A program made the position numbers and the translations under genes. From Chlamydiales bacterium (GTDB taxonomy: Bacteria; Chlamydiota; Chlamydiia; Chlamydiales; SM23-39): 41,420 bases of DNA. The notes under the pieces were generated by a model. That model was not told the origin of the DNA, did not search any database, and saw nothing but the letters and a program-made list of their open reading frames with translations. Location of the stretch: NCBI GenBank assembly GCA_036736085.1, contig DAINNB010000001.1:1-41420 (forward strand), read 5' to 3'. Shown one piece after another: positions 3,816-38,372 of this stretch (position 1 is its first letter; each line of letters opens with the position of its first letter).

Positions 3816-4733
3816 ATGAACAAGATGGATAAAATAAAAACTTTTTCTAATTTTATAAATAAATATAAAGTAAGTTTTATGTCGTTTATTAAAAATCATT
3901 TTAAGAAAATTCATCTAAAAGAACAGTTAGGTCAAATTGATGGAATCGATGCGATTTATCTCATTAATTTAGATCAAAGGACTGAGAGAAGAGATCGGTG
4001 TCTTCAGCAGTTGCGGCCTTATGGGATTGTTCCTGAGAGGTTTTCTGCTATTTATGGATGGGAGATTTCTCAGGAGGCATTTGATGAGGTGGGGTTGAAA
4101 TTTCTTCCTCCGATGGGGTTTCTCTTTGACCGGCGCGTGTTTTTTCGTCCTTCAAGTCATCAAGATGTAGGAGAGCGTTTGAATGAATCTTCTTATGGGA
4201 GGACGTGCGTAAATATCTTTACGATTGCAGGAGCGATAGGTTGCGCATTAAGTCATTTATCTTGCCTTCAAGATGCTTTTGATGGTGGGGTGGAGACTGT
4301 TTGGATTTTAGAAGATGATTTAACAGTTTTTCAAAACCCCCGCTATTTGACCTATTTCATGGGAAAACTCGATCAGATTGTGGGCAAAGAGGGGTGGGAT
4401 CTTCTTTATACAGACAACCATCATATTTTTCCTCTTCGGGAAGGGAAGTATTTCCATGTTCGGCCTGATCGCCCTCCTATTCTTCACGCCTACGAAAACT
4501 TTTTAGTAGGAGATGACTTTATTCAAATTAACGGTCGAGCGGAACTACATTCGACCCTTTATCGGCGCTGTGGCATGAAGAAAATTTTAGAGTACTTTCA
4601 CCATTTCGGCATTTTTCATCCCATTGATATTGAGCTCTATAGTATTCCCGATCTTCGTATGTACAACCTAAGATCTGAGATTGTCGGGCATGGAGGATCC
4701 ACACAGTCCGACACAAGAGATCGAGCATTTTGA
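3816..4733 (+). CDS. family 25 glycosyltransferase (LPS/LOS beta-1,4-galactosyltransferase-like)
   Basis: IDAIYLINLDQRTERRDRCLQQL is the GT25 N-terminal signature, and WILEDD is a DXD-like motif. It is paralogous to 35575-36441. By comparison with that paralogue, the start may be a downstream ATG (3879). Confidence 0.8.
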   Translation: MNKMDKIKTFSNFINKYKVSFMSFIKNHFKKIHLKEQLGQIDGIDAIYLINLDQRTERRDRCLQQLRPYGIVPERFSAIYGWEISQEAFDEVGLKFLPPMGFLFDRRVFFRPSSHQDVGERLNESSYGRTCVNIFTIAGAIGCALSHLSCLQDAFDGGVETVWILEDDLTVFQNPRYLTYFMGKLDQIVGKEGWDLLYTDNHHIFPLREGKYFHVRPDRPPILHAYENFLVGDDFIQINGRAELHSTLYRRCGMKKILEYFHHFGIFHPIDIELYSIPDLRMYNLRSEIVGHGGSTQSDTRDRAF

Positions 4734-5596
4734 GGTTTTTGATGACAAACCGCTATGTAAGCTGCTCATTTATAGGACAGCTAGGCAATCAGTTATTTAT
4801 GATTGCTGCTACTTTAAGTTATGCCTGGGATCACCGTGCAATTGCTACTTTCCCTGGACTTCATGATAGCAATTATCGGCTATCTTACAATCGGGATCGA
4901 ATTTTTTTCCGCCTAAATACCTTCCAACCTCCAACTCCTTTGATCAAAGAGTTTGCCCACACCTACTGGTATCCTGTACACCGAATCCCTTACTGTGAAG
5001 ATAATCTCTTTCTTACCGGCTACTACCAATCATGGCACCATTTTCATCATCATAGAGAAAAACTACTCTCTCTCTTCGCCCCTCATCCAGATACATTAGA
5101 CTATCTATCTCAAAAATACAGAGACCTGCTTCACCATCCCTATACTGTAGCGATCCACGTTCGCACTTATTGCCTAAGAGACCATAAAGCGCTGCCTTTT
5201 TTAGGGTTAGATTATATAAAAGACAGCATAAAACTCTTTCCCGGCTCTCCTCAATTTGTCGTTTTTTCCGATCGGATCAATTTGTGCAAAAAACATTTTG
5301 AGCCGCTAGAAGGCAATTTCATTTTTATAGAAGGTAATGACGGCAACCAAGATTTAGCCTTGATGAGCCTCTGCAAACACAACATCATCGCAAATTCCAC
5401 ATTCTCCTGGTGGGCCGCCTACCTGAACCAACATGATCAAAAAAAAGTCGTCGCTCCAGCCCTTGTCTACCGTTCAGGCCCCACGCACCATTTCTACTGC
5501 CCCGAGTGGATACAAATCCCTGTCACCCTTCAACCCTATCCAGAAGATATGCGCGCTTATGATGAAGTCAGTCAGTCGTTTGATAATAACGACTAA
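4730..5596 (+). CDS. family 11 glycosyltransferase (alpha-1,2-fucosyltransferase-like)
   Basis: GQLGNQLF, HVRTY and NSTFSWWAAYLN match the GT11 motifs (GGLGNQ.FQ / HVRRGDY / NSTFSWWAAYL). TTG 4730 overlaps the upstream stop; ATG 4742 is an alternative start. Confidence 0.85.
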   Translation: MRFLMTNRYVSCSFIGQLGNQLFMIAATLSYAWDHRAIATFPGLHDSNYRLSYNRDRIFFRLNTFQPPTPLIKEFAHTYWYPVHRIPYCEDNLFLTGYYQSWHHFHHHREKLLSLFAPHPDTLDYLSQKYRDLLHHPYTVAIHVRTYCLRDHKALPFLGLDYIKDSIKLFPGSPQFVVFSDRINLCKKHFEPLEGNFIFIEGNDGNQDLALMSLCKHNIIANSTFSWWAAYLNQHDQKKVVAPALVYRSGPTHHFYCPEWIQIPVTLQPYPEDMRAYDEVSQSFDNND

Positions 5597-8927: not shown

Positions 8928-10214
8928 TCACATGAGGTGATTGAAAATTGTAAATCCAGAGGCCTGGATTGTTTCGTAGTCATCTGAAAAGTATCCATAA
9001 GGATCAAAAAGCCGTTTAGAGATCATGTGTTCTCCTAGCAGCTGAAAATCTAGATGTTTAAATTCAGGCCACTCCGTTAAGACGAGGAGAAAATCTGCAT
9101 CTTTTCCTAAGTCATAAGGGTTTTGTACTTTAATGATGCCCTCTATTGGTTCTATTTCAGACCAGTCAGCTTTTGGATCGAAAATTTTCACTTTGGCCCC
9201 CTTGCGCGTAAAATCCCGCGCCATCTCTAGCGGTATGCTTCTTCTTAAAGTGCTTGTCCCTGGTTTGTAAGTAACTCCAAGAAAACTGATGGTTTTTTGG
9301 GGGAACTGACCTAAAATTCTTCCCATCTTGTAGACGAGCAATTTGGGTCTTTGTCGATTGTGTTGCCAAATTTCTTGAAAAAAAGGAAACGTCCCTCCAC
9401 CTCTCGAGGTATTAATTTGGCTTAGAATGCGAAGGTCTCTTCCTAAGGTCCCTCCTGAAAATCCGACCCCAGCCTTGATGTAGGCTTTATTTCCAATGCG
9501 CGGATCGTGCTTCATTGCTTGGGTTACCTGCTTAAAATGAGCTTCCGATAAACCGCAGGCATCGGAAAGTTGGTTGGCAAAAGTGATGGATGAGGCCAAA
9601 AAGGCATTGATGGCGTGTTTCGTCATCTCTGCGCTATTTAAATCCATCGTAATGTAAGTGGCTGGAATAGAAGAAAAAAGATCTTTTACTCTTAGGAGCG
9701 CTTTTTCTTTGTTGCACCCGAGGACGATGTGGCCTGGCCGCAGATAATTGGCAATAGCTTCTCCTAGTTTTAGATTTTCCGGAGAATAGACGATGGGATT
9801 TTTCAATTTATTTTGCCATTTTTTGCATGTGCCGACAGGCACCTGCGAACTAATGATTAAAACCGCTTCAGAAGAGAGGTGAGGAGAGATTTTTTCTAAA
9901 GCTTCTTCAAGGATGTGTAGATCATAAAGATCTTGCTCATTGACAGGTGTATCATAGGTCATAAAAATAAATTCGCAGGCTTTTAAGGAACTGGGATCTA
10001 GTGAAAAAGTGATTTGCTTTTTCTCCAAGCCTGATAGCAGTGATGCGTCTAAATCTGGTTCATATAGAGGGGCTTTTCCTTGGGACAACGAATCGATAAG
10101 ACGGAGATCAAAATCACAAGCAATGACCTGATGGCCTAATTTTAGCCAAGCAGCTGCAGCAACACAGCCTAAATGCCAAAGACCAACGATTCCAATAGTG
10201 GGTTTTGTTTTCAC
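8928..10214 (-). CDS. UDP-glucose/GDP-mannose dehydrogenase family protein, atypical (catalytic Cys position appears to be Thr)
   Basis: N-terminal IGIVGLWHLGCVAAAAW Rossmann fold and family-length architecture. The active-site stretch reads GVGFSGGTLGRD where canonical enzymes have GxGFGGSC[FL]PKD. Confidence 0.7.
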   Translation of the reverse strand: MKTKPTIGIVGLWHLGCVAAAAWLKLGHQVIACDFDLRLIDSLSQGKAPLYEPDLDASLLSGLEKKQITFSLDPSSLKACEFIFMTYDTPVNEQDLYDLHILEEALEKISPHLSSEAVLIISSQVPVGTCKKWQNKLKNPIVYSPENLKLGEAIANYLRPGHIVLGCNKEKALLRVKDLFSSIPATYITMDLNSAEMTKHAINAFLASSITFANQLSDACGLSEAHFKQVTQAMKHDPRIGNKAYIKAGVGFSGGTLGRDLRILSQINTSRGGGTFPFFQEIWQHNRQRPKLLVYKMGRILGQFPQKTISFLGVTYKPGTSTLRRSIPLEMARDFTRKGAKVKIFDPKADWSEIEPIEGIIKVQNPYDLGKDADFLLVLTEWPEFKHLDFQLLGEHMISKRLFDPYGYFSDDYETIQASGFTIFNHLM

Positions 10215-12850: not shown

Positions 12851-13885
12851 TTAGAAACGATCTTTTAATTTGGATACATCAGCTCTCATCATGATTTTGA
12901 CGAGCTCTTCTACGGAAGTTTTTGGCTCCCAATGCAGTTTCGATTTAGCTTTGTGAGGAGCTCCCAGCAAGATATCAACTTCGGTCGGACGGAAGTATTC
13001 AGGAGAGACCTCTACTAAAACTTTTCCTGTTTTTCTATCGATCCCTTCTTCATAGATTCCAGATCCTACCCACCCAATGTTAATATCTAAAAACTGAAAA
13101 GCTAGTTCAACAAAATGTCTGACTGAAGTGGTTTTCCCTGTTGCCAGCACATAGTCATCTGCCAAAGGTTGTTGGAGCATAAGCCACATCCCTTCTACAA
13201 AATCATCGGCGTAGCCCCAATCTCTCTTGGCGTCCAAATTCCCTAAGATGAGCTTATTTTGCAGTCCTAAACTGATCTTAGAAGCGGCTATCGTGATTTT
13301 TCTCGATACAAATGTCTCTCCTCTTCTAGGACTTTCGTGGTTGAATAAAATCCCGTTGCAAGCAAAGAGGTTGTAAGCTTCTCTATAGTTGATGCAGGCC
13401 CAATAGGCATACAATTTAGCAACTCCGTAAGGAGATCTTGGATGGAAAGGGGTCGTCTCTGTCTGAGGCGTCTCTTTGACCTGGCCAAAGAGCTCGGACG
13501 TTGATGCTTGATAAAATTTTGCTTTCGGGTGCACTGTCCGAATGATCTCTAAAAGCCGAATAGTGCCTAAATCGGCAATATTTCCCGTATATTCAGGAAC
13601 TTCGAAAGAGACTTTCACATGGCTCATCGAGGCCAAGTTGTAAATCTCTTCAGGCGCTATTTTCTCTACAAGCTTCATTAAGTTAGAAGAGTCGCCTAAG
13701 TCTCCTTCATATAAAAATAACCTGTCTTTATATTCTTTATTTTTTAAAAGATGAGCAATCCTTGAGCAATTGGGCGAAGAGGCTCTTCTTATTAAGCCAT
13801 GCACTACGTAATTTTTTTTTAAGAGAAATTCTGTTAAATAAGATCCGTCTTGCCCTGTAATTCCTGTAATAAAAGCTTGTTTCAT
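12851..13885 (-). CDS. gmd: GDP-mannose 4,6-dehydratase family (Gmd; could equally act on GDP-heptose, DmhA-like)
   Basis: [43 protein letters not shown] and [10 protein letters not shown] are all classic Gmd motifs. Confidence 0.9.
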
Positions 13886-15114
13886 AGGGCTCTTCCATGG
13901 TCGGGGATTAGAGAGAGCCTTGGAACGGGAACGACAAACTTCCCCCCTTTGGAGAGAAAAGATTTTTCTCTCGTTAAAAACTCATCCATAAAATGGTAAG
14001 GAAGCGTGAAAAAATAGTCGGGGTTCATCTTTCGAGCCTCTTCTTCGGAAATAATCGGAATTCCTGTGACGGTTAACCGTCCATGTTTAATCGGGTAGCG
14101 GTCTGCGATAAAGGGGATAAGCTCTGGACCTATTTCCAAATAGGATAAAATCGTATTCCCTTTCGTTGAAGCTCCATATCCAAGGACAAGTTTGTTTAAT
14201 CTTTTTTGCGTTTTAAGAAAGTTGATGATTTCTTTTTTATTCTCTTGGATTCTTTTTTCGAATTGCTGATACGTTGCTGGTTCATTGAGTTTGAGAGATT
14301 TTTCTTTTTCTCTCATTTTGATGACATTGTCCGTTACAGAAGCCTGCCCTTTTTTTCGAACATAGAGCCGAAAGCTTCCTCCGTTGACATCATTGAGCTC
14401 CACGTCTTCTACTTCAAAGCCGCTTTGATCAAAAATATAGTCCATGGCCTGCAGGCTATAGTACTCTAGGTGCTCTGAGCAGATCGTATCAAAAGAGTTT
14501 CTCTCGAGCATTGTCGGAAGATAACTGTGCTCCAAAATCCATAGCCCGTTGTCTTTTAAAATGTTATGGACGTCTTTAGCGAATTGGACTGGATTTTCCA
14601 GATCGTAAAACATCGATATGCTCGTCACAATATCGGCCTTTTTTTCCCCGAGATGCTTTTGATAGGCCTCTTTGCTAAAGTAGGTATTAATATGGAGATC
14701 GCACTGCTTTGGTTTGATGTTTTTGGCCGGATCGATCCCCACTCGGAAAAAATGGCTAGGATAAGCGCTAAGTAAAGTGCCGTCATTCGATGCGATATCT
14801 ACGACGAGCGGTTTTTCTCCGAGCGTAGCTTTGCAGCGATCGAGAGCGCTCAGAACAATCGATTTTAAAGCGAGCTTCATCGAATCATTCACCCCAGACA
14901 TGTACCAATATTGGGAATACATCTCATCGGGATCTACAGTGTGGCGGAGCTGCACTAAGCCGGAATTGGGATTCAGGCAGACCGTTACGGGAAGCCGCTT
15001 GGGCGTTGGATCTTTCTTGTCAGGAAACGAGGAAAGCGGCAAATCTCCTAAATTTAAAATATCAATTAATTTTCCGCCTGAAATGCGACATTTTATTTTT
15101 TTTGATATTTTCAT
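13882..15114 (-). CDS. NDP-sugar C-methyltransferase family protein (TylCIII-like architecture)
   Basis: ~410 aa with a central SAM fold [12 protein letters not shown]. It is colinear with paralogue 33629-34876, which has the N-terminal CxxC...CxxC zinc ribbon; here the N-terminal cysteines are mostly lost. Its stop overlaps the gmd start (ATGA). Confidence 0.65.
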
Positions 15115-15151
15115 AAAAGGATTTCTCTATGTATTTTGGTTTTTTAAAGCA

Positions 15152-15180
15152 TTGTCAATATTCCAATGTTAATTTAAAGT
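15152..15180 (+). promoter_or_regulatory. candidate sigma70-type promoter in divergent intergenic region
   Basis: TTGTCA (15152-15157), 17 nt, then TAAAGT (15175-15180), about 25 nt upstream of the ATG at 15205. Pattern match only. Confidence 0.25.
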
Positions 15181-15204
15181 AAAATTTTATTCCAAGACAT
15201 TAAA

Positions 15205-16167
15205 ATGAGTCAGAAGAAAGTATTAATTTGCGGCGCGAGCGGTTTTATTGGTCATTATCTTGTTAAAAAATATAAAAAAGAAGGACATTGGGTTTGCGGC
15301 GTTAGTAGAAACTCTCCTCAATATGAGGCGAGTCTTGCCCATGAATTTATCTTGGCCGATTTAAAAGACCCTGGCGCTTTGGAAAAGGTTTTTCAAAAAG
15401 GGCCGTTTGACGAAGTATGCCAGTGTGCGGCGACCATTGGAGGCGCCCAATTTATAGAGGCTCATTCTGCTCAAATTCTTCGCGACTCTACCTTAATTCA
15501 TCTGAATGTATTGGAAATGTGTCGAAAAAGGGGAGTAGCCAAGATCTTATATCCCTCATCGGCTTGCGTCTACCCCATTCCTTCTTCAGAAACGTGCCTC
15601 TCTTCAAAGTACTCAGAAACTTCAGTCTATCCAGCCAACCCTTATACAGAATATGGCTGGGAGAAAATTTTTGGGGAGAGGGTTTGCATGGCTTATCAGA
15701 AAAAATATGGGCTCGATATTCGGATTGCCCGTCTTTTCAGCGTTTTCGGCCCGCTTAGCCCTTGGGATGGAGGAAAAGAGAAGGCTCCGTCTGCTTTATG
15801 CCGCAAAATCGCTTTGGCTAAAGAAGGGGATTTTATCGAAGTGTTCGGCAGCGGCGAGCAAAAAAGAGCCTTTTTATCGATCGATGACTGTGTGGAAGGT
15901 CTTTGGCGGATCATGCAGGCCCCAGGTCCCTTGCCTATTTTAAATTTAGGTTCTGAAACCCAAATTTCGATGAATCAACTAGCCCTTTTAATTGCTGATA
16001 TAGCTAAGAAGAAAATCAAAATTAAAAATATCGGAGCCCAAATCGGGTTTCATGAGATGACCTCCGACAATCGATTGCTTTATGAAACGCTTCATTGGAA
16101 GCCCGAAGAAAACATTCGGGATGGTTTGGAAAATCTTTATTTTTGGATAGAAGGAAAATTGATTTGA
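15205..16167 (+). CDS. GDP-mannose 3,5-epimerase-like extended SDR (divergent paralogue of 27203-28225)
   Basis: VLICGASGFIGHYL, SSACVYP, YGWEK and GGKEKAPSALCRK parallel the GME motifs SSACIYPE / GGREKAPAAFCRK. Confidence 0.65.
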   Translation: MSQKKVLICGASGFIGHYLVKKYKKEGHWVCGVSRNSPQYEASLAHEFILADLKDPGALEKVFQKGPFDEVCQCAATIGGAQFIEAHSAQILRDSTLIHLNVLEMCRKRGVAKILYPSSACVYPIPSSETCLSSKYSETSVYPANPYTEYGWEKIFGERVCMAYQKKYGLDIRIARLFSVFGPLSPWDGGKEKAPSALCRKIALAKEGDFIEVFGSGEQKRAFLSIDDCVEGLWRIMQAPGPLPILNLGSETQISMNQLALLIADIAKKKIKIKNIGAQIGFHEMTSDNRLLYETLHWKPEENIRDGLENLYFWIEGKLI

Positions 16168-16238
16168 AGATTTATTAATTTGCATGAAACTAATTTAATT
16201 TTTATTATTTAGTTAGGCTTTAATATTATGGTTGTTTC

Positions 16239-16937
16239 TTGGAAGAGATTGATTTAAGCTACTTTGAAAAAAAGGTATTTAGCCAAAATGGGGAAGATGG
16301 GGTTCTTGAAAAAATTTTTCAAGAAGTTGGAACCACTTCCAAATACTTTGTCGAATTTGGAACCGGGGATGGCAGCGAATGCAATACCCGTTATTTAAGA
16401 GAAACAAAAAATTGGAAAGGTCTTCTTTTAGATTATAAATATGTAAACCCATTAATTAATTTACATCAGTGTTTAATTACTGCTGAGAATATTTGTGAAA
16501 TATTTGAAAAGCATGAAGTTCCTACTGAGTTTGATCTACTTTCTATTGATATAGACGGCAACGATTTCTATGTACTGAAGGCCATTTTAGAAAAATATCG
16601 GCCCAGAGTGATTGTTGCAGAATATAATTCCTGGTTTGAGATCCAAGACAAAATCGTTCCTTATCATCCGTTCTTCAGGGCTGATGCCACTAATTATTGG
16701 GGAGTCAGCATTACGGCTTTGTACAATCTAGCCTCTAAAAAAGGTTTTTCGCTGATCTATGCAGAAGATAAAGGAGTTAACGTATTTTTTGTAAGAAATG
16801 ATGTGTTAAACGACTCTCTTTCTCATTTCAAAAATACAAATCGGATCGAAAAAATCTACAAAGATCCCCGTTATATCTATCCTGTTGAATACAGAGTTCA
16901 CGATAGGCCCTTTGTAAAATCTACAGATTTTTTATGA
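16239..16937 (+). CDS. FkbM-like/SAM-dependent methyltransferase-fold protein
   Basis: FSQNGEDGVLEKIF...YFVEFGTGDGSECNT...LLSIDIDGNDFYVL...VIVAEYN. TTG start at 16239, with no in-frame ATG nearby. Confidence 0.5.
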   Translation: MEEIDLSYFEKKVFSQNGEDGVLEKIFQEVGTTSKYFVEFGTGDGSECNTRYLRETKNWKGLLLDYKYVNPLINLHQCLITAENICEIFEKHEVPTEFDLLSIDIDGNDFYVLKAILEKYRPRVIVAEYNSWFEIQDKIVPYHPFFRADATNYWGVSITALYNLASKKGFSLIYAEDKGVNVFFVRNDVLNDSLSHFKNTNRIEKIYKDPRYIYPVEYRVHDRPFVKSTDFL

Positions 16938-17962
16938 GCGTTGTTATTTTGGCTGGAGGAGAGGGCTCAAGGGTTTGGCCTTTATCAAGAAATGAGTTTC
17001 CGAAACAGTTTTTAAGTTTCGGAAATGAGCCTTCTCTTTTACAAAAAACCATCCTTCGCTTCACTGACAATCCCCTCGTCAAAAAAATCCTCATCTCAAC
17101 GAATACTCAATATGAGCATCTTGTCCATCGTCAAATTGAAAAACTCGGCGTCGAAGCTCTTTGCGACGTCCTGACAGAACCTCTCAAAAGAAACACAGCG
17201 CCAGCTATGGCCTATTGTGTAAAATATCTCGAAGACCTGCACCTGATCTCTCCTGAAGAAACAATTTTGGTCCTTCCCTCAGATCACGTCATCGAACCCA
17301 AAGAGGTCTTCCATCAGCACATAAAAAGCGCTCAACTTCAGGCCAGATCCAAAATCATCATTTTCGGAGTCAACGCTCAAAAACCAGAAACCGGCTATGG
17401 ATACATAGAAACTGGCTCTTCCCACGACTCTTCCACCTACAAAATCAAAAAATTCACTGAAAAACCCTCCCTAAAAGAAGCCGAGCATTATCTCTCCCAG
17501 GGAACCTACTACTGGAATTGCGGAATTTTTCTCTTCTCCCCTTCCATCTTCTGGCAAGAAATGAAACTCTACGCCCCAGAAATTAATCGCCTCTCCCAGC
17601 ACCCGTTTTCAAGCATCAAACACCACTACAGTGCTTTCCCAGATATCTCGATTGACTACGCCCTTCTCGAAAAAACTAGCGAATCCCTTCTCTGCCCCAT
17701 CTCTATCTCCTGGACCGATATAGGGTCTTGGGACAGCATCTACGAAGTACTAGATAAAGATGAGCACCAAAATGTCATCATCGGAGAGGCCGAACCTCTC
17801 GAAACCCAAAATAGCCTGATCATCAGCCATGGCAAAAAAAGGGTCTCCACCATCGGAGTCCAAAATCTCCTCATCATCGACACAGAAGACGTTCTTCTCA
17901 TCGTCCAAAAAGGCAACTCCCAAAAAGTCAAAAAATTATCCAAAAAATCTTCCCGTTCATAG
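16934..17962 (+). CDS. manC: mannose-1-phosphate guanylyltransferase (nucleotidyltransferase domain only, no isomerase/cupin domain)
   Basis: VILAGGEGSRVWPLSRNEFPKQFL, LPSDHVI, GYGYIE, YYWNCGIFLF and WTDIGSWD are typical ManC/CpsB motifs. Confidence 0.85.
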   Translation: MSVVILAGGEGSRVWPLSRNEFPKQFLSFGNEPSLLQKTILRFTDNPLVKKILISTNTQYEHLVHRQIEKLGVEALCDVLTEPLKRNTAPAMAYCVKYLEDLHLISPEETILVLPSDHVIEPKEVFHQHIKSAQLQARSKIIIFGVNAQKPETGYGYIETGSSHDSSTYKIKKFTEKPSLKEAEHYLSQGTYYWNCGIFLFSPSIFWQEMKLYAPEINRLSQHPFSSIKHHYSAFPDISIDYALLEKTSESLLCPISISWTDIGSWDSIYEVLDKDEHQNVIIGEAEPLETQNSLIISHGKKRVSTIGVQNLLIIDTEDVLLIVQKGNSQKVKKLSKKSSRS

Positions 17963-17985: not shown

Positions 17986-18885
17986 TTAGGCTTGGAGTTG
18001 TTCTTTTTTGGTGCAGCGGAGGATGTAGAGGTTGCTGGCTACGATGATGGCTGCGCCGAGGACGGTGTTGAGGTCTACGATTTTTTGCCACCAGAAGAAG
18101 TCGAGGGCTACGACCCAGAAGAAAGATGAGTAGTCGATGGGGGCCAGGAGTGAGGCTTGGGCGAAGCGGAGAGCTTGAGCGATGAGGTATTGTCCAAACG
18201 CGGTGATGGCTCCTACGAGGAGGAAGAGGGCCCAGTGGGTCCAGGGCATAGGGGTCCAGATAGTGAAGAGAAAGGGGAGGGTGAAGAGGATCATGGTGAG
18301 GTTGGGGTAGATGGCAATCGAGAGGCTGTGTTCCGTTTCGGCGAGGCGTCTCATGAGGATTTTGTTGAGCGAGCCTAGGAAGGCTCCAAGGAGGACGAGC
18401 AGAGCTGTCCATTCCATGACGCCGGAGCCTGGCCGCGTTGCGATGACGACGCCCAGCATGCCGAGGGCGACGGCTGCCCATCTATGCCAGGAGACCTTTT
18501 CTTTTAGCATAATGGCGCTAAGGAGGATCATGAAAAAGGGAGAGGTGTAAGAGAGGGTGTAGACCTCTGTCAAAGAGCCCATTGACATGGCTAGCATAAA
18601 AGAGCAGGTGTAGACGAGGTTTACTCCGAGCCGTACGGCATGTCTTGCGGGGTGAGAGGTGCTGAGGACTTTTTTTACGCCTCCTTGAAAGTAAACTGCG
18701 ACGAGGAGGGGGATGAGCCTTGTCAGCGCCCTTAGAATCATGGTTTGTTTGACGGCGTAGCTTGACATGAGATGCTTGAGGCAGGCGTCGGAAAGGGCGT
18801 AACAGATAAGAGCGAGACACATCGCGGAAACGCCCATAAAGGCTCGATCTTGAAGGCTTCTATTAGACTCTCTTGCTTGCGTCAT
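17986..18885 (-). CDS. EamA/DMT-superfamily transporter (10-TM type)
   Basis: 299 aa and highly hydrophobic, with two EamA-like halves. Its nucleotide composition and codon usage differ strikingly from its neighbours: GC-rich, with C-ending codons (CTC, ATC, GCC, GTC, ACC, TAC). Confidence 0.8.
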   Translation of the reverse strand: MTQARESNRSLQDRAFMGVSAMCLALICYALSDACLKHLMSSYAVKQTMILRALTRLIPLLVAVYFQGGVKKVLSTSHPARHAVRLGVNLVYTCSFMLAMSMGSLTEVYTLSYTSPFFMILLSAIMLKEKVSWHRWAAVALGMLGVVIATRPGSGVMEWTALLVLLGAFLGSLNKILMRRLAETEHSLSIAIYPNLTMILFTLPFLFTIWTPMPWTHWALFLLVGAITAFGQYLIAQALRFAQASLLAPIDYSSFFWVVALDFFWWQKIVDLNTVLGAAIIVASNLYILRCTKKEQLQA

Positions 18886-18932: not shown

Positions 18933-19745
18933 TTATAAAATCGGTTTTTTGGCTTTGATCAAAAGATGCCACCCAGCTTTTTTTTCAAGAACGTGGAAAA
19001 GCTTGAGAGGGAGGAGGTTCCAGGGAAATTTTTTTACATAATTTAATTTTTTATATTCTTTCAGACGATAAGGAAAGATGTGTGTTTTTTTGCATTCAAT
19101 GATTTCAAATTTTTCTAATAATTTAGTAATTTCTTTTTTCGAGAAAGTGACGGCGATCGGACATCCTGGCTGGGCTTCGGGTTGAGCCCTTTTTAGATAA
19201 ATTAAAAAATTTTTAATGCTATATTTAGCATAGAGCATGATCCTTAGCTCTCCTCCAGGCTTAAGGACCTTGAAACATTCATTGAGAGCCAACGTGGGAC
19301 GGGGAGTATGATGAAGGACGCCGAAGGAATAAACGAGATCAAATTGTTTGTTTGGAAAATAGGAAGCAAGTTCTTCCGCATTGCCTAAAATAAAATCGGC
19401 TTTAAGATTAAAAACCTTAAATCTTTTTTTTGTGATTGCGATATTATTTTCAGCTAGGTCCAAAGAGGTCAAGAGAGCTCCGGCTCTAGCGAAATTGATC
19501 GAATCGGTCCCTATTCCACAGCCTACTTCCAAAACATCCTTCCCCTTCCATCTTTCAAAGTCAGCAAATAAAGGGATATGAGGTTCTACGAAATATTTTC
19601 TTTTTTCGACCTCATTGAAATATTCTAAAGTTCCGATGGGAAAGTTACTGTGTTTTATATTACAAGGCTGTCTATTCCAATACTCTTTTACGTTGTGAAT
19701 TTGCATGCAATTTCGTTGATCTGTCTCATTACTGTATGAGCCCAT
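18933..19745 (-). CDS. class I SAM-dependent methyltransferase
   Basis: VLEVGCGIGTDSINFA (motif I) and LKPGGEL (post-II). The internal ATG at 19706 (MQIHNV...) is a likelier start because it shortens the overlap with the upstream gene. Confidence 0.8.
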   Translation of the reverse strand: MGSYSNETDQRNCMQIHNVKEYWNRQPCNIKHSNFPIGTLEYFNEVEKRKYFVEPHIPLFADFERWKGKDVLEVGCGIGTDSINFARAGALLTSLDLAENNIAITKKRFKVFNLKADFILGNAEELASYFPNKQFDLVYSFGVLHHTPRPTLALNECFKVLKPGGELRIMLYAKYSIKNFLIYLKRAQPEAQPGCPIAVTFSKKEITKLLEKFEIIECKKTHIFPYRLKEYKKLNYVKKFPWNLLPLKLFHVLEKKAGWHLLIKAKKPIL

Positions 19746-24408: not shown

Positions 24409-25031
24409 ATGACCCTCATGTTCTCTATGCTTTATTATCTCCGGAAAAACTTTTTGCCTCGAGAATCTACTATTGCAGTTGTCGGGGCCAATTGGGGCTC
24501 TCACGTTATCGAGATTAGCAAACTTTGGCCTCAAAGCACTCTCTACGCTTTCGAGCCTAATCCGAGGGTCTATCCGGCCTCAATGAAAATCTCTCTAAAG
24601 AGTCCCTCTATAACTCAATAAAAACCTACCAGCTAGCCCTCGGTGGAACAAACGGCATGCTAAATTTCTATGTAGACTTGCAAGATACAAGCTGCATCAG
24701 CTTTCTCTACACCCCCGCGGAAAAAAAGAAATTCTTCGAAACTCCCATCAAAGTCCCCGTCTTAACTTTAGACAAATGGGCTGAACTGCAAAATGTCTCC
24801 CACATCGATTTTCTCTACCTCGATATGCAAGGCGCGGAAGGAGACATGCTTAAAGCAAGCCCCACTCTCTTAAAAACCGTAAAAGTCATCGAACTGGAAT
24901 TCTATACCTACCCCGTCTACGAAGGAATCATGTTCCGCGACGAAATCAAAACGTTCCTCGAAGACGCCGGCTTCAAAACACTCTACCTAGAACCAGAAGA
25001 AAACGGCGAAGCCATTTTCGTCAGAAAATAA
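24409..25031 (+). pseudogene. FkbM-family methyltransferase split by a frameshift near 24564
   Basis: ORF 24409-24621 gives VVGANWGSHV...YAFEPNPRV. The expected continuation GLSGLNENLSKESLYNSIKTYQLALGGTNGMLNFY... is read in the next frame from about 24564 and joins ORF 24657-25031 (IDFLYLDMQGAEGDML). Confidence 0.7.
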
Positions 25032-25170: not shown

Positions 25171-26067
25171 TTAGTTCCACCAGGCTGGATCGCAGGATTG
25201 GGAGTTTTCGTCGTAGCTGTACATATCTTCAGGATAGGGGGCGAAGACGTAAGGTACTCCTATCCAATCAGGGAGGTAGAGGTTTTCTTGGGGATTGGGA
25301 TAGGGGTGGCCTCCTGAGTGCCATTTGTCCGGGACGATCACTTTTTTATTGGGGTTTTGGTTAAGGTAGGCTCCCCACCAGGAGAAAGTCGAGTTGCAGA
25401 TGATGTTGTGTTTGCATTTTGACATGAGGAAGAGATCTTCTATGCCGTAGTTTCCGTCTACGAAAAGGAAGTTTTTGTCGGGGAATTTTTCTTTGAAATG
25501 TTTTTTACACCAATTAATCCTATCGGAGAAGAGGACAAATAGAGAATCGCTGGAGAAGTGCTGCATCGCTTTTTCATAGTACTCGAATCCTAAGAAAGGC
25601 TGCTGGTTGGTGTTATGAAATCGGATGCCAGAGGTTCTGGCGTGAATGCTTACTGTATTGGGATTTTCTAAGAGATCTTTGTATTTTGCGTGCAGGATAT
25701 TTAACGTCTGCTCTGATGGATCAAGAGTTTCTAGCAACCGGGATCGATGATGATGAAAATGTCTCCAGCTTTGAAAATAACCGTCTAAAATGACATCTTT
25801 TAGATAAGGGATTCTTTCTGGACAATAGGCGTCTTTTTCCCGGAAGATGGTGGAAAAATTTCTTGGGGGCTGAGACGTGTCGAGTCGGAAAAATAGGCGG
25901 TCTTTATTGTAAGACGTCCTGTTTTTTTTCGTATGAAGCCCAGGAAATATAGGGGTCATGTCATAATCCCAAGCGTACGCTAATGTCGCCGCTGTGATGA
26001 ATAGCTGGTTTCCTATCTGTCCATAAAATTGACATGTAACTAAAGGTTTTGAGTATTTGTCTGTCAT
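25171..26067 (-). CDS. family 11 glycosyltransferase (alpha-1,2-fucosyltransferase-like), paralogue 2
   Basis: GQIGNQLFITAATLAYAWDY, HARTS and NSTFSWWGAYLN. The C-terminus PYPEDMYSYDENSQ is shared with the other GT11 copies. Confidence 0.85.
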   Translation of the reverse strand: MTDKYSKPLVTCQFYGQIGNQLFITAATLAYAWDYDMTPIFPGLHTKKNRTSYNKDRLFFRLDTSQPPRNFSTIFREKDAYCPERIPYLKDVILDGYFQSWRHFHHHRSRLLETLDPSEQTLNILHAKYKDLLENPNTVSIHARTSGIRFHNTNQQPFLGFEYYEKAMQHFSSDSLFVLFSDRINWCKKHFKEKFPDKNFLFVDGNYGIEDLFLMSKCKHNIICNSTFSWWGAYLNQNPNKKVIVPDKWHSGGHPYPNPQENLYLPDWIGVPYVFAPYPEDMYSYDENSQSCDPAWWN

Positions 26068-26074
26068 GTAATTA

Positions 26075-27193
26075 TTATTTGTTTTGAATTACGTATTTAA
26101 ATATATTTCCATACTGCTGTCTGACTTTTTGAATGACATTTTCATTGTCTAAAATCGTCACTTCTTTTCCTTGGCTAGCAATTTTTTGGGCGATTAAAAG
26201 TTTTTGCGAATGCTCAATGATAGGAACGGGGCATTTTGGCTTATAGCAAACATCTTCAAATACATATTCGCTTAGGTTTTTTTCTAAGATTCTATTCGCA
26301 ATGAATTCGGCATGCATATTATTGGTTGCGTCAGTTGCTTTAAAGAGAACTGGGTTAATGCCTATGAGAGTTGCGTAGTTGCCTAAAGCCCTATTATCTC
26401 TTGGAAAGCAAGGACCGCCGAAGCCGTATCCTGGAGAGAGGTTTTTGCTTCCGATCCTTTGGTCTTTTCCAATGGCAGCCAAAATCTCTGTTTTATCGGC
26501 CCCTGGCGTAAGATCTGCGATGTCGCTAATCAAGTTGGCAAAGGCAATTTTGCTTGTAATAAAACAGTTAACCGCGAGCTTTGTAATCTCTGCGCTTTCG
26601 ATCGACATCCGCGCTATAGCAGGACTTGAGGAGCATAAATCGCTGTAAATCTTTTGGAGCGCGTCGCCTGCTTCTTTAGAGTCTTCCCCAATCAGCACCA
26701 TGTCTGGATTTTCTAGGCCATAAATAATGTTGCCCTGAGCAATAAATTCAGGGTTATAATTGAGGGTTGTATTTTTGCAGTCAGCAATTAACTTTTTTGC
26801 AGTCCCTTGAATATAGTTGGGAAAGACAGTAGAGCTGATGATAAGATGTTTATTTTCAATTGCTTTTTCGTTGATCTTGCTGAGAACTTCAGAAACGATT
26901 TCGTGATCGTAAGTCTGCACCTCTTGAATCGTATTGGTGGGAACTGCCAAAAAACAGATATTGGAAAAATCTAGCCCCTCTTGAAGAGAAGTAGTCGCCC
27001 TAAAATTTTTGCTGTTTACTAGGTAGTTTCTGACATTTGGCTCTGAAGAATCTAAGGTTTTTGTGTTGATCTGCTCGATGTAGTCTGGAGACAGGTCGAC
27101 TCCTAATACAGAGTAGCCGGCTTTTTCCAAACATAGCGCAAGACAAATCCCTAGACGCCCGATCCCAATCACAGTAATATTTTTTGATTCCAA
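26075..27193 (-). CDS. nucleotide-sugar 6-dehydrogenase (UDP-Glc/GDP-Man dehydrogenase family, short form)
   Basis: ITVIGIGRLGICLA and GYGFGGPCFPRDN, with the catalytic Cys present. TTG start with GGAGG 5 nt upstream. Confidence 0.8.
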   Translation of the reverse strand: MESKNITVIGIGRLGICLALCLEKAGYSVLGVDLSPDYIEQINTKTLDSSEPNVRNYLVNSKNFRATTSLQEGLDFSNICFLAVPTNTIQEVQTYDHEIVSEVLSKINEKAIENKHLIISSTVFPNYIQGTAKKLIADCKNTTLNYNPEFIAQGNIIYGLENPDMVLIGEDSKEAGDALQKIYSDLCSSSPAIARMSIESAEITKLAVNCFITSKIAFANLISDIADLTPGADKTEILAAIGKDQRIGSKNLSPGYGFGGPCFPRDNRALGNYATLIGINPVLFKATDATNNMHAEFIANRILEKNLSEYVFEDVCYKPKCPVPIIEHSQKLLIAQKIASQGKEVTILDNENVIQKVRQQYGNIFKYVIQNK

Positions 27194-27202
27194 GGGAACC
27201 TC

Positions 27203-28225
27203 CTACTGCGCTAGCGTTTTCATTTTTGTTTTGATCAGTTTGGTGGCAATCAGCTTCAGTTTTAGTTTTTCAGAGACCCAAGGATATGTTTTTCTCAAGC
27301 CCATTTCGAGGTTTTGGTTCGGTTCCCAATTGAGAACTTGCCGAATGAGCCGATTGTCTGAATTTCTTCCTCGAACTCCTTCAGGCCCCTCTACATTTTT
27401 AACGGTGACTTTTTTATTGGCGACGCGAGCGACTAAGAGAGCTAAGTTATTGATAGAGATACACTCTTCCGAACCAATATTTAAAATCGGAATCCCTTTT
27501 TCTGCATGCATGACCCGGCGAAGCCCCTCAATGCACTCATCGATATAAAGAAAAGAGCGGGTTTGATCTCCCTTGCCCCATATTTCTATCGTTCCCCCGT
27601 CGTCTACTTCAGCGACCTTTCTGCATATGGCAGCAGGAGCTTTTTCCCTTCCCCCAATCCACGTTCCTTCAGGCCCAAAAATGTTATGAAGCCGAACGAC
27701 TCGATTGTCCATACCGTAGTCTTTTTCATATGACTTGTATAATCTCTCGCTGTAGAGTTTTTCCCAGCCATACTCAGTATCTGGATGGGCAGGATAAGCG
27801 GAATCTTCTGAACATCTGGGATTGTTGGGATCTAGTTGATTGTGTTCTGGATAGATGCAAGCTGATGAAGTATAGAGCATCTTCTTTACGCCTGTTTTTC
27901 GGGCCTCTTCCAGGACGTGCAAATTGATGAGGGACGAATTATGCATAATTTCAGAGCTATGGGTCGCTAAAAATCCCATTCCTCCCATATTGGCAGCAAG
28001 CTGGCATACCTCGTCAAAGCTTTCGCCCTGAAGATCTAATGCCCTCTTCGCTCCCTCTGGATGAGTGAGGTCTGCAATAATAAAGTCGTCGGCAGCAGTT
28101 TTAGAGTATTCTGGATATTTAATATCTACTCCTCGAACCCAGAATCCCTCTTTTTTATAACGATTGACGAGGTGGTGGCCAATAAATCCTCCGGCTCCGC
28201 ATACGAGAATTTTTTTTTGAGTCAT
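27203..28225 (-). CDS. GDP-mannose 3,5-epimerase (GME) homologue
   Basis: ILVCGAGGFIGHHL, LAANMGGMGF, YTSSACIYPE, EYGWEKL and FGPEGTWIGGREKAPAAICRK are near-identical to the conserved blocks of plant/bacterial GME (AADMGGMGF, SSACIYPE, GGREKAPAAFCRK). Confidence 0.8.
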   Translation of the reverse strand: MTQKKILVCGAGGFIGHHLVNRYKKEGFWVRGVDIKYPEYSKTAADDFIIADLTHPEGAKRALDLQGESFDEVCQLAANMGGMGFLATHSSEIMHNSSLINLHVLEEARKTGVKKMLYTSSACIYPEHNQLDPNNPRCSEDSAYPAHPDTEYGWEKLYSERLYKSYEKDYGMDNRVVRLHNIFGPEGTWIGGREKAPAAICRKVAEVDDGGTIEIWGKGDQTRSFLYIDECIEGLRRVMHAEKGIPILNIGSEECISINNLALLVARVANKKVTVKNVEGPEGVRGRNSDNRLIRQVLNWEPNQNLEMGLRKTYPWVSEKLKLKLIATKLIKTKMKTLAQ

Positions 28226-29061
28226 AAAATGCTCTCTATTTCCATTTCTTCTTTTATTCTTTTTATTCCATCGGCTAATTCTGTTTTTGGTTTCCAGAAT
28301 CTTAAAATATAAGGATCAGGTTCGTTTCTTTTATCTTTTTGTACTTCATCCGCAGACGGCCCTGGCGAGATGTTTGTCCCTGGATAAAGTTTAGCTATAA
28401 CTTCAGCAACTTCTTTAATATAATTCCATTTGAAATTAGTTATGTGAAGTTCTTTTTCTCTTGATATATTATTATATTCTTTTGCTAATTTTATGATACA
28501 TTCGCTGCAATCATCAGCGTATAAAAATTGGCGCATTTCGTTTCCATCTGTCATCATGTCGATGTTTTTATTATTTCTGGCTTTTAATAAAAAATCTGTA
28601 ATGACATGGGATTTTTCTAAATCTTTTTCTATCCCATAAACATTCCAAAATTTAACAATCAATCCCCCCAAGATCTTTGTATAAAGCTCTCCAAGAGCTT
28701 TCAGCTGTCCATAAGGGGAATAACCCATGTTCGACATTTGGCTAGACGCGAATAAAAAGGGTTTTTTTGTTTTCTGAAGAAAAGAGAAAGTGTTCTCAAT
28801 AATTCTAATATTATTTGAAACAAATTCAAGAGTGTTTTGATAGGTTTTCAAATAGCGAGAACCGCCTACATCGAAGGCAAGGAAGAAAACAAAGTCAGCT
28901 TCTTCCATTCTTTCTAGTAGTAGTTTGTTGTTAGGGATCCTTAAGTCTTCTTCCTGATTATTCACCAAATCAAAAGGGATTACTTCTTCTTTTATTTTTT
29001 TGATGTGTTTAACTAGTGAAAATCCTAACTGCCCAGATGATCCTAGCACTAAGTATTTCAT
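28222..29061 (-). CDS. NAD(P)-dependent SDR-type sugar epimerase/reductase
   Basis: MKYLVLGSSGQLGFSL and YGQLK (YxxxK). I prefer the ATG at 29061 to the track start at 29118, which adds 19 non-conserved residues. Confidence 0.7.
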   Translation of the reverse strand: MKYLVLGSSGQLGFSLVKHIKKIKEEVIPFDLVNNQEEDLRIPNNKLLLERMEEADFVFFLAFDVGGSRYLKTYQNTLEFVSNNIRIIENTFSFLQKTKKPFLFASSQMSNMGYSPYGQLKALGELYTKILGGLIVKFWNVYGIEKDLEKSHVITDFLLKARNNKNIDMMTDGNEMRQFLYADDCSECIIKLAKEYNNISREKELHITNFKWNYIKEVAEVIAKLYPGTNISPGPSADEVQKDKRNEPDPYILRFWKPKTELADGIKRIKEEMEIESIL

Positions 29062-29189
29062 GTAATTCTCTTTTATTTTTTGATTAATTGTATTTTTATT
29101 TGCTTTGATATGTGTCAATCTATATAAAAAATGTTTTTATGTAAAAGTTTTTGTGTTCTCATAGTTTTATAATATTGGGGAGGAATCTG

Positions 29190-37496: not shown

Positions 37497-38372
37497 TTAA
37501 TCGTTATTATCGATACACTGTGAGACTTTGTCGTAATCGTAGACGTCATCTGGCAACGGTTGAATGGGTCCGCAGTCCATTAACGTCCACTCGGGCAGGA
37601 AGAAATCTTCTGCTCGGGGGTTGATTTGCAGAGCGGGGTTTTTCCAAAGCCGTGGGAGGAGCACTTTTTTATCTGGATTTTGATTGAAATAAGCGGCCCA
37701 CCAAGAAAAAGAAGAGTTGCAGAGGATATTGTGTTTGCATTTTGCAAGTAAAAATAGATCTTCTATGGCGTAGTTATCCTCTACGAAAATGAAATTTCTA
37801 GGGATAGAAGAGAAGTGTTTTTTACACCAGTTGATTCGGTCTGAAGTAATGACAAATAGAGAGTCTTCAGGGAACTGATCGATGCATCTTTGATAATAGT
37901 CCATGCCCCAGAAGGGGTGATTCCCATTGTTATGTGTTCTTCGGCATTGTGTTCTTACGTGAACGCCTACTGTTTTAGGATGTTCTAGAACGTCTTTATA
38001 TTTTACTTGTAAATAGTGAAGAGTGAAATCTGAAGGGGCGAATACTTGTAGGAGTTTTTCTTGGTGATGATGAAAACGTTTCCAAGACTGGAGATAGCCA
38101 TTGAGTACGAGGTCGTTTTGAAAAGGGATTTTTTCTGCACCGTACCAGCTTGATTCTTCAAAAATATGTGCAGGGGGCCTTGGAAGCATTGATGAGTTTA
38201 ATCTAAAAAACATCCGATCTTTGTTATAAGAGATATTCCAAGCTTTTTGATGCAGGGCTGGAAAGTAGGCGTCTGCACCATAGTCCCAAGCGTAAGCTAA
38301 GGTAGTGGCTATTTGGAAAAATTGATTTCCAAGCTGGCCGTAAATTTGGCAAGAGACAAAGGGCTTTTGCAC
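37497..38372 (-). CDS. family 11 glycosyltransferase (alpha-1,2-fucosyltransferase-like), paralogue 3
   Basis: GQLGNQFFQIATTLAYAWDY, HVRTQC and NSSFSWWAAYFN. GTG start. Confidence 0.85.
   Translation of the reverse strand: MQKPFVSCQIYGQLGNQFFQIATTLAYAWDYGADAYFPALHQKAWNISYNKDRMFFRLNSSMLPRPPAHIFEESSWYGAEKIPFQNDLVLNGYLQSWKRFHHHQEKLLQVFAPSDFTLHYLQVKYKDVLEHPKTVGVHVRTQCRRTHNNGNHPFWGMDYYQRCIDQFPEDSLFVITSDRINWCKKHFSSIPRNFIFVEDNYAIEDLFLLAKCKHNILCNSSFSWWAAYFNQNPDKKVLLPRLWKNPALQINPRAEDFFLPEWTLMDCGPIQPLPDDVYDYDKVSQCIDNND

Follow-up and report, generated by a model that had tools for sequence, protein, structure and literature searches.

A chlamydial GDP-mannose 3,5-epimerase in a four-gene cassette that may supply an L-sugar to a GT11-like transferase

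The stretch of DNA considered here (the window) is a complete 41.4-kb contig, DAINNB010000001.1, 41,420 nucleotides long, from a Chlamydiales bacterium whose metagenome-assembled genome (MAG), GCA_036736085.1, comprises 1.80 Mb in 246 contigs and is 92.6% complete. A gene at 27203-28225 encodes a homologue of guanosine diphosphate (GDP)-mannose 3,5-epimerase (GME), which yields activated L-galactose; by every sequence criterion that can be tested, this protein, here called GME-1, is a bona fide GME. Its gene lies in a cassette with those of a short-chain dehydrogenase/reductase (SDR) named SDR298, a nucleotide-sugar dehydrogenase (DH372) and a GT11-like transferase (GT11b). We incline, with some reservation, to the view that the GME-1 cassette makes a tailored L-sugar that GT11b transfers. 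The product is probably an L-galacto- or L-gulo-configured sugar, possibly a uronic acid, and not plain L-galactose. The cassette is composed as follows.

28222-29061, minus strand: SDR298, an extended SDR of NAD type, about 279 amino acids, recurrent partner of GME (open reading frame readable from a TTG at 29118)
27203-28225, minus strand: GME-1, orthologue of GDP-mannose 3,5-epimerase, 340 amino acids, assigned by PDB match, fingerprint residues and tree
26075-27193, minus strand: DH372, a short enzyme of the UGDH/GDP-mannose-dehydrogenase family, 365-372 amino acids, assigned by Pfam domains, PDB match and linkage
25171-26067, minus strand: GT11b, a GT11-like transferase (PF01531), last gene of the cassette and candidate user of a GDP-L-sugar
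29117-29145, minus strand: promoter-like site upstream of the cassette, TTTACA-17-TAGATT, a weak candidate from a consensus scan only

Identity of GME-1

A phmmer search of the PDB matched residues 4-322 of GME-1 to residues 30-343 of the Arabidopsis GME, AtGME (2c59), with E=7.7e-91 and 307.8 bits, and the two proteins are 47.8% identical over 312 aligned columns. The best match outside the GMEs was a GDP-L-fucose synthase (Fcl) at 87.5 bits, and no GalE-like chain scored above this value. For comparison, AtGME shares 50.5% identity with MfGM35E, the characterised enzyme of the bacterium Methylacidiphilum fumariolicum, and relatives at a similar level of identity act on GDP-mannose (PMC6678494). 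General domain models are less specific: Pfam assigned only generic SDR families to GME-1, and the top NCBIfam model, that of GDP-L-fucose synthase, gave 114 bits where its cut-off is 500.

The residues that set GME apart from GMER and GalE are S143, C145, Y174, K178, N203, K217, R243 and R306 (PMC8787198). A fingerprint table was built from 234 aligned homologues, using the residues of that source plus the NAD-type Asp58, in AtGME numbering. The canonical fingerprint was found in 229 of the 234 sequences, GME-1 among them; its string reads DISCYKHNKRRR, and all ten positions (D58, S143, C145, Y174, K178, H202, N203, K217, R243 and R306) are kept. GME-1 has the extended-SDR Rossmann features GAGGFIG and GVD(I)K, with the NAD-type Asp that closes beta2 in the column of D58, and the catalytic triad S143/Y174/K178, which serves both oxidation and reduction at C4. 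The acid-base pair C145/K217, in which Lys stands in place of the His of GMER, the Cys-acidifying R306, R243, which binds the diphosphate, and N203 are all present, in the motifs SSACIYPE, GGREKAP, QTRSF, GVRGRNSDN and LHNIFGP. In a tree of 103 sequences, GME-1 falls within a GME clade dominated by Chlamydiota, with a support of 95 in the Shimodaira-Hasegawa-like approximate likelihood-ratio test (SH-aLRT), and its closest GME relatives are MAGs of Chlamydiota.

The original prediction, which had named a bona fide GME homologue at this position from three conserved blocks, is borne out by the bit score, the ten fingerprint residues and the placement in the tree; the blocks QLAANMGGMGFL, SSACIYPE and GGREKAPAAICRK can all be read in the translation, and the comparison with characterised GMEs that it had proposed gave the identity to AtGME and the position inside the GME tree described above. 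These features strongly argue that GME-1 would be a catalytically intact, NAD+-dependent GDP-mannose 3,5-epimerase.

With AtGME (PDB 2C59/2C54/2C5A/2C5E) and MfGM35E (EC 5.1.3.18), GME-1 shares the glycine motif, the NAD-binding Asp, the Ser/Tyr/Lys triad, the Cys/Lys acid-base pair, R306, R243 and N203, in an alignment over the full length. The gene of MfGM35E likewise has glycosyltransferase and methyltransferase genes as neighbours (PMC6678494). In plants the enzyme serves the synthesis of ascorbate and of the cell wall, whereas GME-1 stands in a chlamydial glycan operon. Bacterial GMEs are common, with more than 8000 database matches and 562 genome loci, and GME-1 itself is a routine addition to a family characterised in plants and, since 2019, in bacteria.

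The cassette and its partner enzymes

All four genes are read from the minus strand in the order SDR298, GME-1, DH372 and GT11b. The ATG of GME-1 overlaps the stop codon of SDR298 by 4 nucleotides, and the gaps from GME-1 to DH372 and from DH372 to GT11b are 9 and 7 nucleotides. To judge by this spacing, GME-1 is translationally coupled with SDR298 upstream and with DH372 and GT11b downstream, and the operon of GME, nucleotide-sugar dehydrogenase, SDR and GT11 that had been claimed for this region holds. In the consensus scan, promoter-like sites were no more numerous in the region than in shuffled sequence.

DH372 contains PF03721 and PF00984, and TIGR03026 aligns to it over model positions 2-364 of 413. 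Its subfamily is 362-421 amino acids long, bar one member of 490 (n=120). The Cys nucleophile (GFGGPCFPRD) is found in 116 of the 120 homologues, and DH372 keeps the catalytic Lys, Asn and Asp as well as the Glu equivalent to E161 of human UDP-glucose dehydrogenase (hUGDH), the residue that hydrolyses the thioester (PMC3265891); the stretches AEITKLAVN and NPEF are present. DH372 thus resembles hUGDH and Pseudomonas aeruginosa AlgD (1MV8) in its N-terminal and central domains, in the Cys/Lys/Asn/Asp set and in the hydrolytic Glu, and can be read as a putatively competent GDP-hexose 6-dehydrogenase. The idea that DH372 lacks the hydrolytic Glu, from which an unusual outcome of the reaction would follow, was dropped, as mapping onto hUGDH put E161 at the first Glu of NPE161FLAE165G, which is kept. 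A second dehydrogenase of the family, 428 amino acids long, is encoded in the window at 8928-10214 on the minus strand; it reads GFSGGTLGRD where the family has GFGGPCFPRD, so that its Cys nucleophile is replaced.

The family of SDR298 numbers about 170 representatives at E<1e-30. The true start of SDR298 is placed at the ATG at 29061, since residue 20 of the longer reading frame is where the alignments with all homologues begin. Conserved features are the GxxGxxG motif, the NAD-type D31, Y117 and K121. The active-site stretch, 'SSQ', lacks the Cys that marks 3,5-epimerases and also the Glu found in dehydratases and decarboxylases. Members of the family are fused to GT2, GHMP kinase or methyltransferase domains; to judge from these sequences, the fusions confirm a role in polysaccharide synthesis and are silent on the reaction. 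Among the nearest sequence and fold neighbours of SDR298 is PhGal4E_1 of Pyrococcus horikoshii (PDB 8RDG/8RDH), a characterised GDP-L-sugar 4-epimerase (PMC12171764). The similarity to 8rdg/8rdi is weak and partial (E about 5e-6, residues 145-243 of SDR298), SDR298 is some 40 residues shorter, and by fold GME, Cj1427, GalE and other SDRs are equal neighbours. SDR298 is a dedicated GME partner, and our best guess is that it would act by epimerisation or oxidation at C4.

GT11b matches PF01531 with 81.4 bits (cut-off 23.9), over profile positions 122-297 only. Two other GT11-like genes lie in the window, GT11a at 4730-5596 and GT11c at 37497-38372. The sequence HxRRGD[YF] is what we take to be motif I of GT11, which binds GDP-fucose. 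At this position GT11b reads IHARTSGIRF, GT11a IHVRTYCLRD and GT11c VHVRTQCRRT, and a Bacteroidota GT11 at a locus elsewhere (L053) reads MHVRRGDFVY. Every chlamydial GT11-like protein shares the deviant HxRT, and motif I was dropped as a donor signature of GT11b. In these chlamydial proteins the name 'fucosyltransferase' is, as far as their sequences tell, a family label.

Recurrence of the cassette

To place the cassette in a wider context, 80 GME-anchored genome loci were annotated with the proteins of the window. An orthologue of DH372 abuts GME in 18 of them, from at least five phyla: by label, 6 of 9 loci in Chlamydiota and 2 of 2 in Verrucomicrobiota, the others being from Pseudomonadota, Planctomycetota and Omnitrophota. 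In the survey of Chlamydiota described below, DH372 adjoins GME in 10 of the 13 GME-bearing genomes. Many of the database matches of DH372 and GME lay on equally long contigs, which was counted toward linkage. A literature search on a bacterial GME-dehydrogenase pair, GDP-L-galacturonate or GDP-L-guluronate returned nothing relevant.

In metagenomes, 80 SDR298-anchored loci were collected, 50 of which had enough flank to judge GME, and GME adjoins SDR298 in 30 of these 50 and lies within 5 kb in 42. Upstream of SDR298, a GT11-like gene was found in 17 of 58 metagenome loci. In the GME-anchored set, 10 of the 80 loci have a GT11-like gene no more than 10 kb from GME. Orthologues of GT11b (334-554 bits) adjoin GME in all three loci that hold them (L010, L013 and L019). 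Only GT11b and its orthologues are clearly linked to GME; for the other seven GT10/GT11 paralogues of the window, no such link was found.

The full four-gene cassette recurs in one genome labelled Methylococcales (GCA_030680135.1, locus L010), with 81% identity between the GMEs, and this is either a recent transfer or a mis-binned chlamydial contig. The same locus also carries the GT10, GT25 and EamA neighbours that are typical of the chlamydial locus.

Each of the 13 genomes counted in the phylum survey carries a GME that has the canonical fingerprint or departs from it by one substitution. Separately, a Parachlamydiales genome carries two GMEs, and the copy that adjoins DH372 (L184, G173:C4, 3986-4996, minus strand) has Y174H and K178T; with its redox triad gone from the sequence, this copy may be inactive or repurposed.

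The occurrence of GME beside fucosyltransferase genes is a pairing already known and common. For example, the cluster for 'cell wall synthesis and modification' of cyanophage S-SCSM1 has an annotated GME together with an alpha-1,2-fucosyltransferase and NodZ-type transferases (PMC9602691). The phage cluster, however, has both Gmd and a canonical Fcl, whereas the chlamydial genome has Gmd without Fcl, plus DH372 and SDR298.

Proposed pathway

In the pathway that we favour, GME-1 would be the entry enzyme of a co-transcribed cassette, SDR298 > GME-1 > DH372 > GT11b. With its catalytic set complete, DH372 most likely oxidises C6 of a GDP-hexose, which would yield a GDP-L-hexuronic acid. Such a step, being irreversible, would draw flux from the epimerase equilibrium, which favours GDP-mannose. 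Somewhat less firmly, SDR298 would carry out a tailoring of the C4 oxidation or epimerisation type, because it has an NAD-type site and a Ser/Tyr/Lys triad with neither the 3,5-epimerase Cys nor the dehydratase Glu. GT11b would then install the resulting L-sugar on an acceptor, as its place in the operon and the linkage of its orthologues suggest. A methyltransferase encoded elsewhere in the window, MT270, may methylate the sugar of the cassette, its orthologues recurring with GME and DH372 in other genomes. Since the SDR298 and DH372 families recur beside GME, the donor is more likely a further-modified GDP-L-hexose than the direct product of GME-1.

Several observations weigh against this pathway. 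The DH372 family differs from hUGDH and AlgD in being short, in having no detectable PF03720 and in carrying an invariant Gln (FIAQG) at the position of hUGDH E165, the second Glu of NPEFLxEG. Pfam does not detect PF03720 in DH372 or in any of the 120 homologues, so that a recognisable C-terminal nucleotide-sugar-binding domain is missing, and the substrate of DH372, even the outcome of its reaction, may differ from those of UGDH and AlgD. Look-ups anchored on DH372 found GME adjacent in 3 of 6 cases, and in the other 3 no GME adjoined DH372. For SDR298, an AlphaFold 2 (AF2) model (pLDDT 97.7) retrieved with Foldseek, as top matches, GME, the GDP-heptose 4-dehydrogenase Cj1427 and GDP/UDP-sugar 4-epimerases, that is, generic extended SDRs that give no functional resolution. 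GT11b reads HARTSG in place of the canonical HxRRGD[YF], and its use of a GDP-sugar is itself an assumption. Finally, GME-1, Gmd and GME-2 (described below) are missing from both genomes of the same genus, which keep GT10/GT11-like genes.

GME-2 and the Gmd/C-methyltransferase branch

A second relative of GME lies next to the gmd gene of the window and was overlooked in the original prediction, which had noted manC and gmd. Both of these genes are indeed present, the former with a score under the cut-off of its model.

15205-16167, plus strand: GME-2, divergent GME paralogue of 320 amino acids, 50% identical to GME-1 and matching plant GMEs at 219-224 bits
13882-15114, minus strand: CMT1, TylCIII-type C-methyltransferase (PF08484 and PF08421)
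12851-13885, minus strand: Gmd (TIGR01472, 531.6 bits, above the 415-bit cut-off)
16934-17962, plus strand: ManC, mannose-1-phosphate guanylyltransferase and supplier of GDP-mannose (TIGR01479, 323.8 bits, below the cut-off of 372.95; Pfam NTP_transferase and ManC beta-helix)

GME-2 keeps S143, C145, Y174, K178, K217 and R243. It has lost D58, which is S followed by R59, and has H202 changed to F, N203 to S, R304 to H and R306 to M. In the tree, GME-2 groups with two metagenomic relatives in a long-branch clade (SH-aLRT 99) that arises within the chlamydial GMEs. The NAD-type Asp58 is lost in all three members, which read S-R (GME-2), G-T (P0123) and G-R (P0124); P0123 shares the losses of N203 and R306, and P0124 has Cys145 changed to F. 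On this evidence GME-2 derives from the GME family but, as its residues depart from the fingerprint, should not be filed as a GME. Another chlamydial GME-like gene (L176, G086:C14, 5001-5960, plus strand) lies directly downstream of a TylCIII-type C-methyltransferase and has the same N203S as GME-2, a hint that position 203 may adapt to C-methylated substrates.

CMT1 and Gmd are transcribed divergently from GME-2, which lies upstream of ManC. This context is kept in one other locus (L009), where the divergent CMT1-Gmd pair is followed by an FkbM gene, ManC and EamA. The ManC/Gmd/CMT1/GME-2 module, at 12851-17962, resembles a scheme proposed in silico for GDP-beta-D-virenose in Coxiella burnetii, with Gmd (CBU_0689), a TylCIII-like C-methyltransferase (CBU_0691) and GMER (CBU_0688) (PMC3539893): both have manC, gmd, a C-methyltransferase and an SDR of the epimerase/reductase type. 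In Coxiella the slot of the SDR is occupied by GMER/Fcl, which has a Cys/His pair; its counterpart in the window is the GME paralogue, diverged and bearing a Cys/Lys pair. The analogy suggests that GME-2 could be an NADPH-type reductase, with or without epimerase activity, on a 4-keto-6-deoxy (C-methyl) GDP-sugar, and from its residues it may serve as an NADPH-type substitute for Fcl or Rmd. In either case, GME-2 would illustrate how an epimerase with three reactions is remodelled after duplication.

Fucose pathway genes in Chlamydiota

The absence of a canonical Fcl from the window, a central point of the original prediction, is real, and it extends to the whole assembly. With the NCBIfam model NF047922 (GDPFucSynFcl, cut-off 500 bits), none was found in the window or in the 1.80-Mb genome; no match in the assembly exceeds 111 bits, and the highest, of about 110 bits, belong to the two GME paralogues. 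In a separate comparison with the model, GME-1 scores 114 bits and GME-2 112. Both have Lys at the base position, where Fcl has the His of its Cys/His pair. The two genomes of the same genus have no Fcl either, of the strong or of the weaker score class.

A sample of 251 Chlamydiota genomes was then surveyed, 250 of which were scored for Fkp. A real Fcl (312-504 bits) occurs in 37 of the 251 and a weaker Fcl-like class (213-234 bits), often beside Gmd, in 12. Salvage by a bifunctional Fkp of the Bacteroides type was ruled out, this enzyme being absent from all 250 genomes, and no Fkp was found in the present assembly or in the two genomes of its genus. GT11-like genes were found in 70 genomes and GT10-like genes in 82, with one or both in 117. 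Among these 117, Fcl is present in 16, GME in 10, neither in 91, and Fkp in none; 60 also have no Gmd. GME is associated with GT10/GT11-like genes (10 of 13 GME genomes, odds ratio 4.1, one-sided p=0.02, uncorrected for phylogeny), whereas the association of Fcl with these transferases is negative if anything (odds ratio 0.48).

Because Fcl and GME are both missing from 91 of the 117 genomes with such transferases, little can be concluded in this phylum from the absence of fcl. The argument that it points to a GME-derived donor was right in its premise but is only partly supported in its conclusion. With at least 4 full-length TLC/NTT nucleotide transporters (500-734 bits; G000 contigs C32, C104, C220 and C31) encoded in the genome, a set expected for an obligate intracellular chlamydia, uptake of donors from the host is a serious alternative.

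Alternative sugar donors

The alternative that fares best, and which we regard as possible but rather improbable, is that the GT10/GT11-like enzymes use GDP-L-fucose or another 6-deoxyhexose, made by Gmd and GME-2 or imported from the host, and that the GME-1 cassette makes a separate, minor sugar. It is favoured by the place of GME-2 beside CMT1-Gmd and upstream of ManC, an arrangement kept in L009, and by the loss of Asp58 from the entire GME-2 clade while Cys145 and Lys217 are kept in GME-2. The transporters just described, a DMT/EamA protein conserved in this type of locus, and the lack of a de novo route in most of the chlamydiae that carry GT10/GT11-like genes, would fit an import of the donor; against this, we know of no GDP-fucose importer in bacteria. 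The production of fucose by GME-2 is in turn questioned by its own clade: because R306, N203 and, in P0124, the catalytic Cys145 have been lost, a simple reductase or an enzyme of C-methyl sugars is as likely as an Fcl-like role. The adjacent C-methyltransferase also indicates a branched 6-deoxy sugar of the kind proposed for virenose (PMC3539893), and not fucose.

We judge it unlikely that plain GDP-L-galactose from GME-1 simply replaces GDP-L-fucose, with several of the GT10/GT11 paralogues acting as L-galactosyltransferases. The genome has neither Fcl nor Fkp, 10 of the 13 chlamydial GME genomes carry GT10/GT11-like genes, GT11 is found at many other GME loci that lack DH372 and SDR298, and fucosyltransferases accept GDP-L-galactose in vitro (reviewed in PMC8787198). 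Yet in the window two dedicated tailoring enzymes bracket GME in one transcription unit, only GT11b is linked to it, and the 91 genomes that have the transferases without Fcl or GME indicate that such transferases are not GME-dependent in general. The suggestion that GT10/GT11 paralogues may transfer L-galactose or a methylated form of it can therefore be kept in part: a non-fucose L-sugar is reasonable for GT11b, but the other paralogues are not linked to GME and the donor is probably tailored.

A reversal of the order, in which DH372 could act first as an AlgD-like GDP-mannose 6-dehydrogenase and GME-1 could then epimerise C5 (and C3) of GDP-mannuronate to give GDP-L-guluronate or GDP-L-galacturonate, would agree with AlgD (GDP-mannose 6-dehydrogenase) being the second-best PDB match of DH372 and with the 3 of 6 DH372-anchored loci that have no adjacent GME, but is very unlikely given that GME-1 keeps every substrate-contacting fingerprint residue of the enzymes acting on GDP-mannose and that relatives of comparable identity act on that substrate (PMC6678494).

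Other genes of the window

The window as a whole is densely packed with glycan genes. There are four GT10-like genes, one further gene with a GT10 C-terminal domain and three GT11-like genes, together with GT2, GT25, two TylCIII-type C-methyltransferases, several FkbM and class-I methyltransferases, a GDP-heptose-like pathway, manC, gmd and a DegT aminotransferase. The methyltransferase named in the proposed pathway is the following.

18933-19745, minus strand: MT270, class-I S-adenosylmethionine (SAM) methyltransferase (Pfam Methyltransf_11/25)

At 11 of the 80 genome loci, a match resembling MT270 (228-383 bits) is encoded no more than 10 kb from GME, and modules of DH372, GME and MT270 are found in four chlamydial loci (L178, L179, L181 and L182), two of them with ManC alongside.

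An EamA/DMT transporter at 17986-18885 on the minus strand is kept near ManC or GT10 genes in L009, L010 and L091 (420-482 bits). This protein could be a candidate importer of nucleotide sugars. A chlamydial DMT transporter exchanges SAM and S-adenosylhomocysteine (SAH), and by analogy, given the many methyltransferases of the locus, SAM/SAH exchange could be its role instead. A reading frame of 124 amino acids at 24657-25031 on the plus strand matches only the C-terminal half of the FkbM profile (88-172 of 173) and is probably a truncated or frameshifted remnant.

The GC content of the contig, 40.7%, is somewhat low against 44.3% for the genome. Mis-binning of the contig was considered and rejected: copies of its miniature inverted-repeat transposable element (MITE) occur on 17 other contigs, and in tetranucleotide composition it correlates at 0.965, where the median is 0.978.

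Significance

A broader proposition, which we consider doubtful, is that the GT10/GT11-like 'fucosyltransferases' of this organism, perhaps of the whole phylum, are not fucosyltransferases and are fed by two undescribed GDP-sugars made in the cell: a GDP-L-hexuronic acid or its C4 epimer from GME-1, DH372 and SDR298, and a C-methyl-6-deoxyhexose from Gmd, CMT1 and GME-2. If this were true, GME-2 would be the first GME scaffold turned into an NADPH-dependent epimerase/reductase through loss of the NAD-type Asp, R306 and N203, taking the place of Fcl/GMER in the Coxiella scheme for virenose.

For the GME family, the significance lies in the partners: the SDR298 and DH372 families are repeatedly wired to GME across many phyla, which suggests a branch of GDP-L-sugar metabolism that has yet to be described and that might provide rare L-sugar nucleotides for biocatalysis. 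For the Chlamydiota, most 'fucosyltransferase' genes occur without a known GDP-fucose route, and automatic calls of 'fucosylation' in these intracellular bacteria are therefore unsafe. Whether the real donors are home-made L-sugars or nucleotide sugars derived from the host is a testable question about the chlamydial cell surface.

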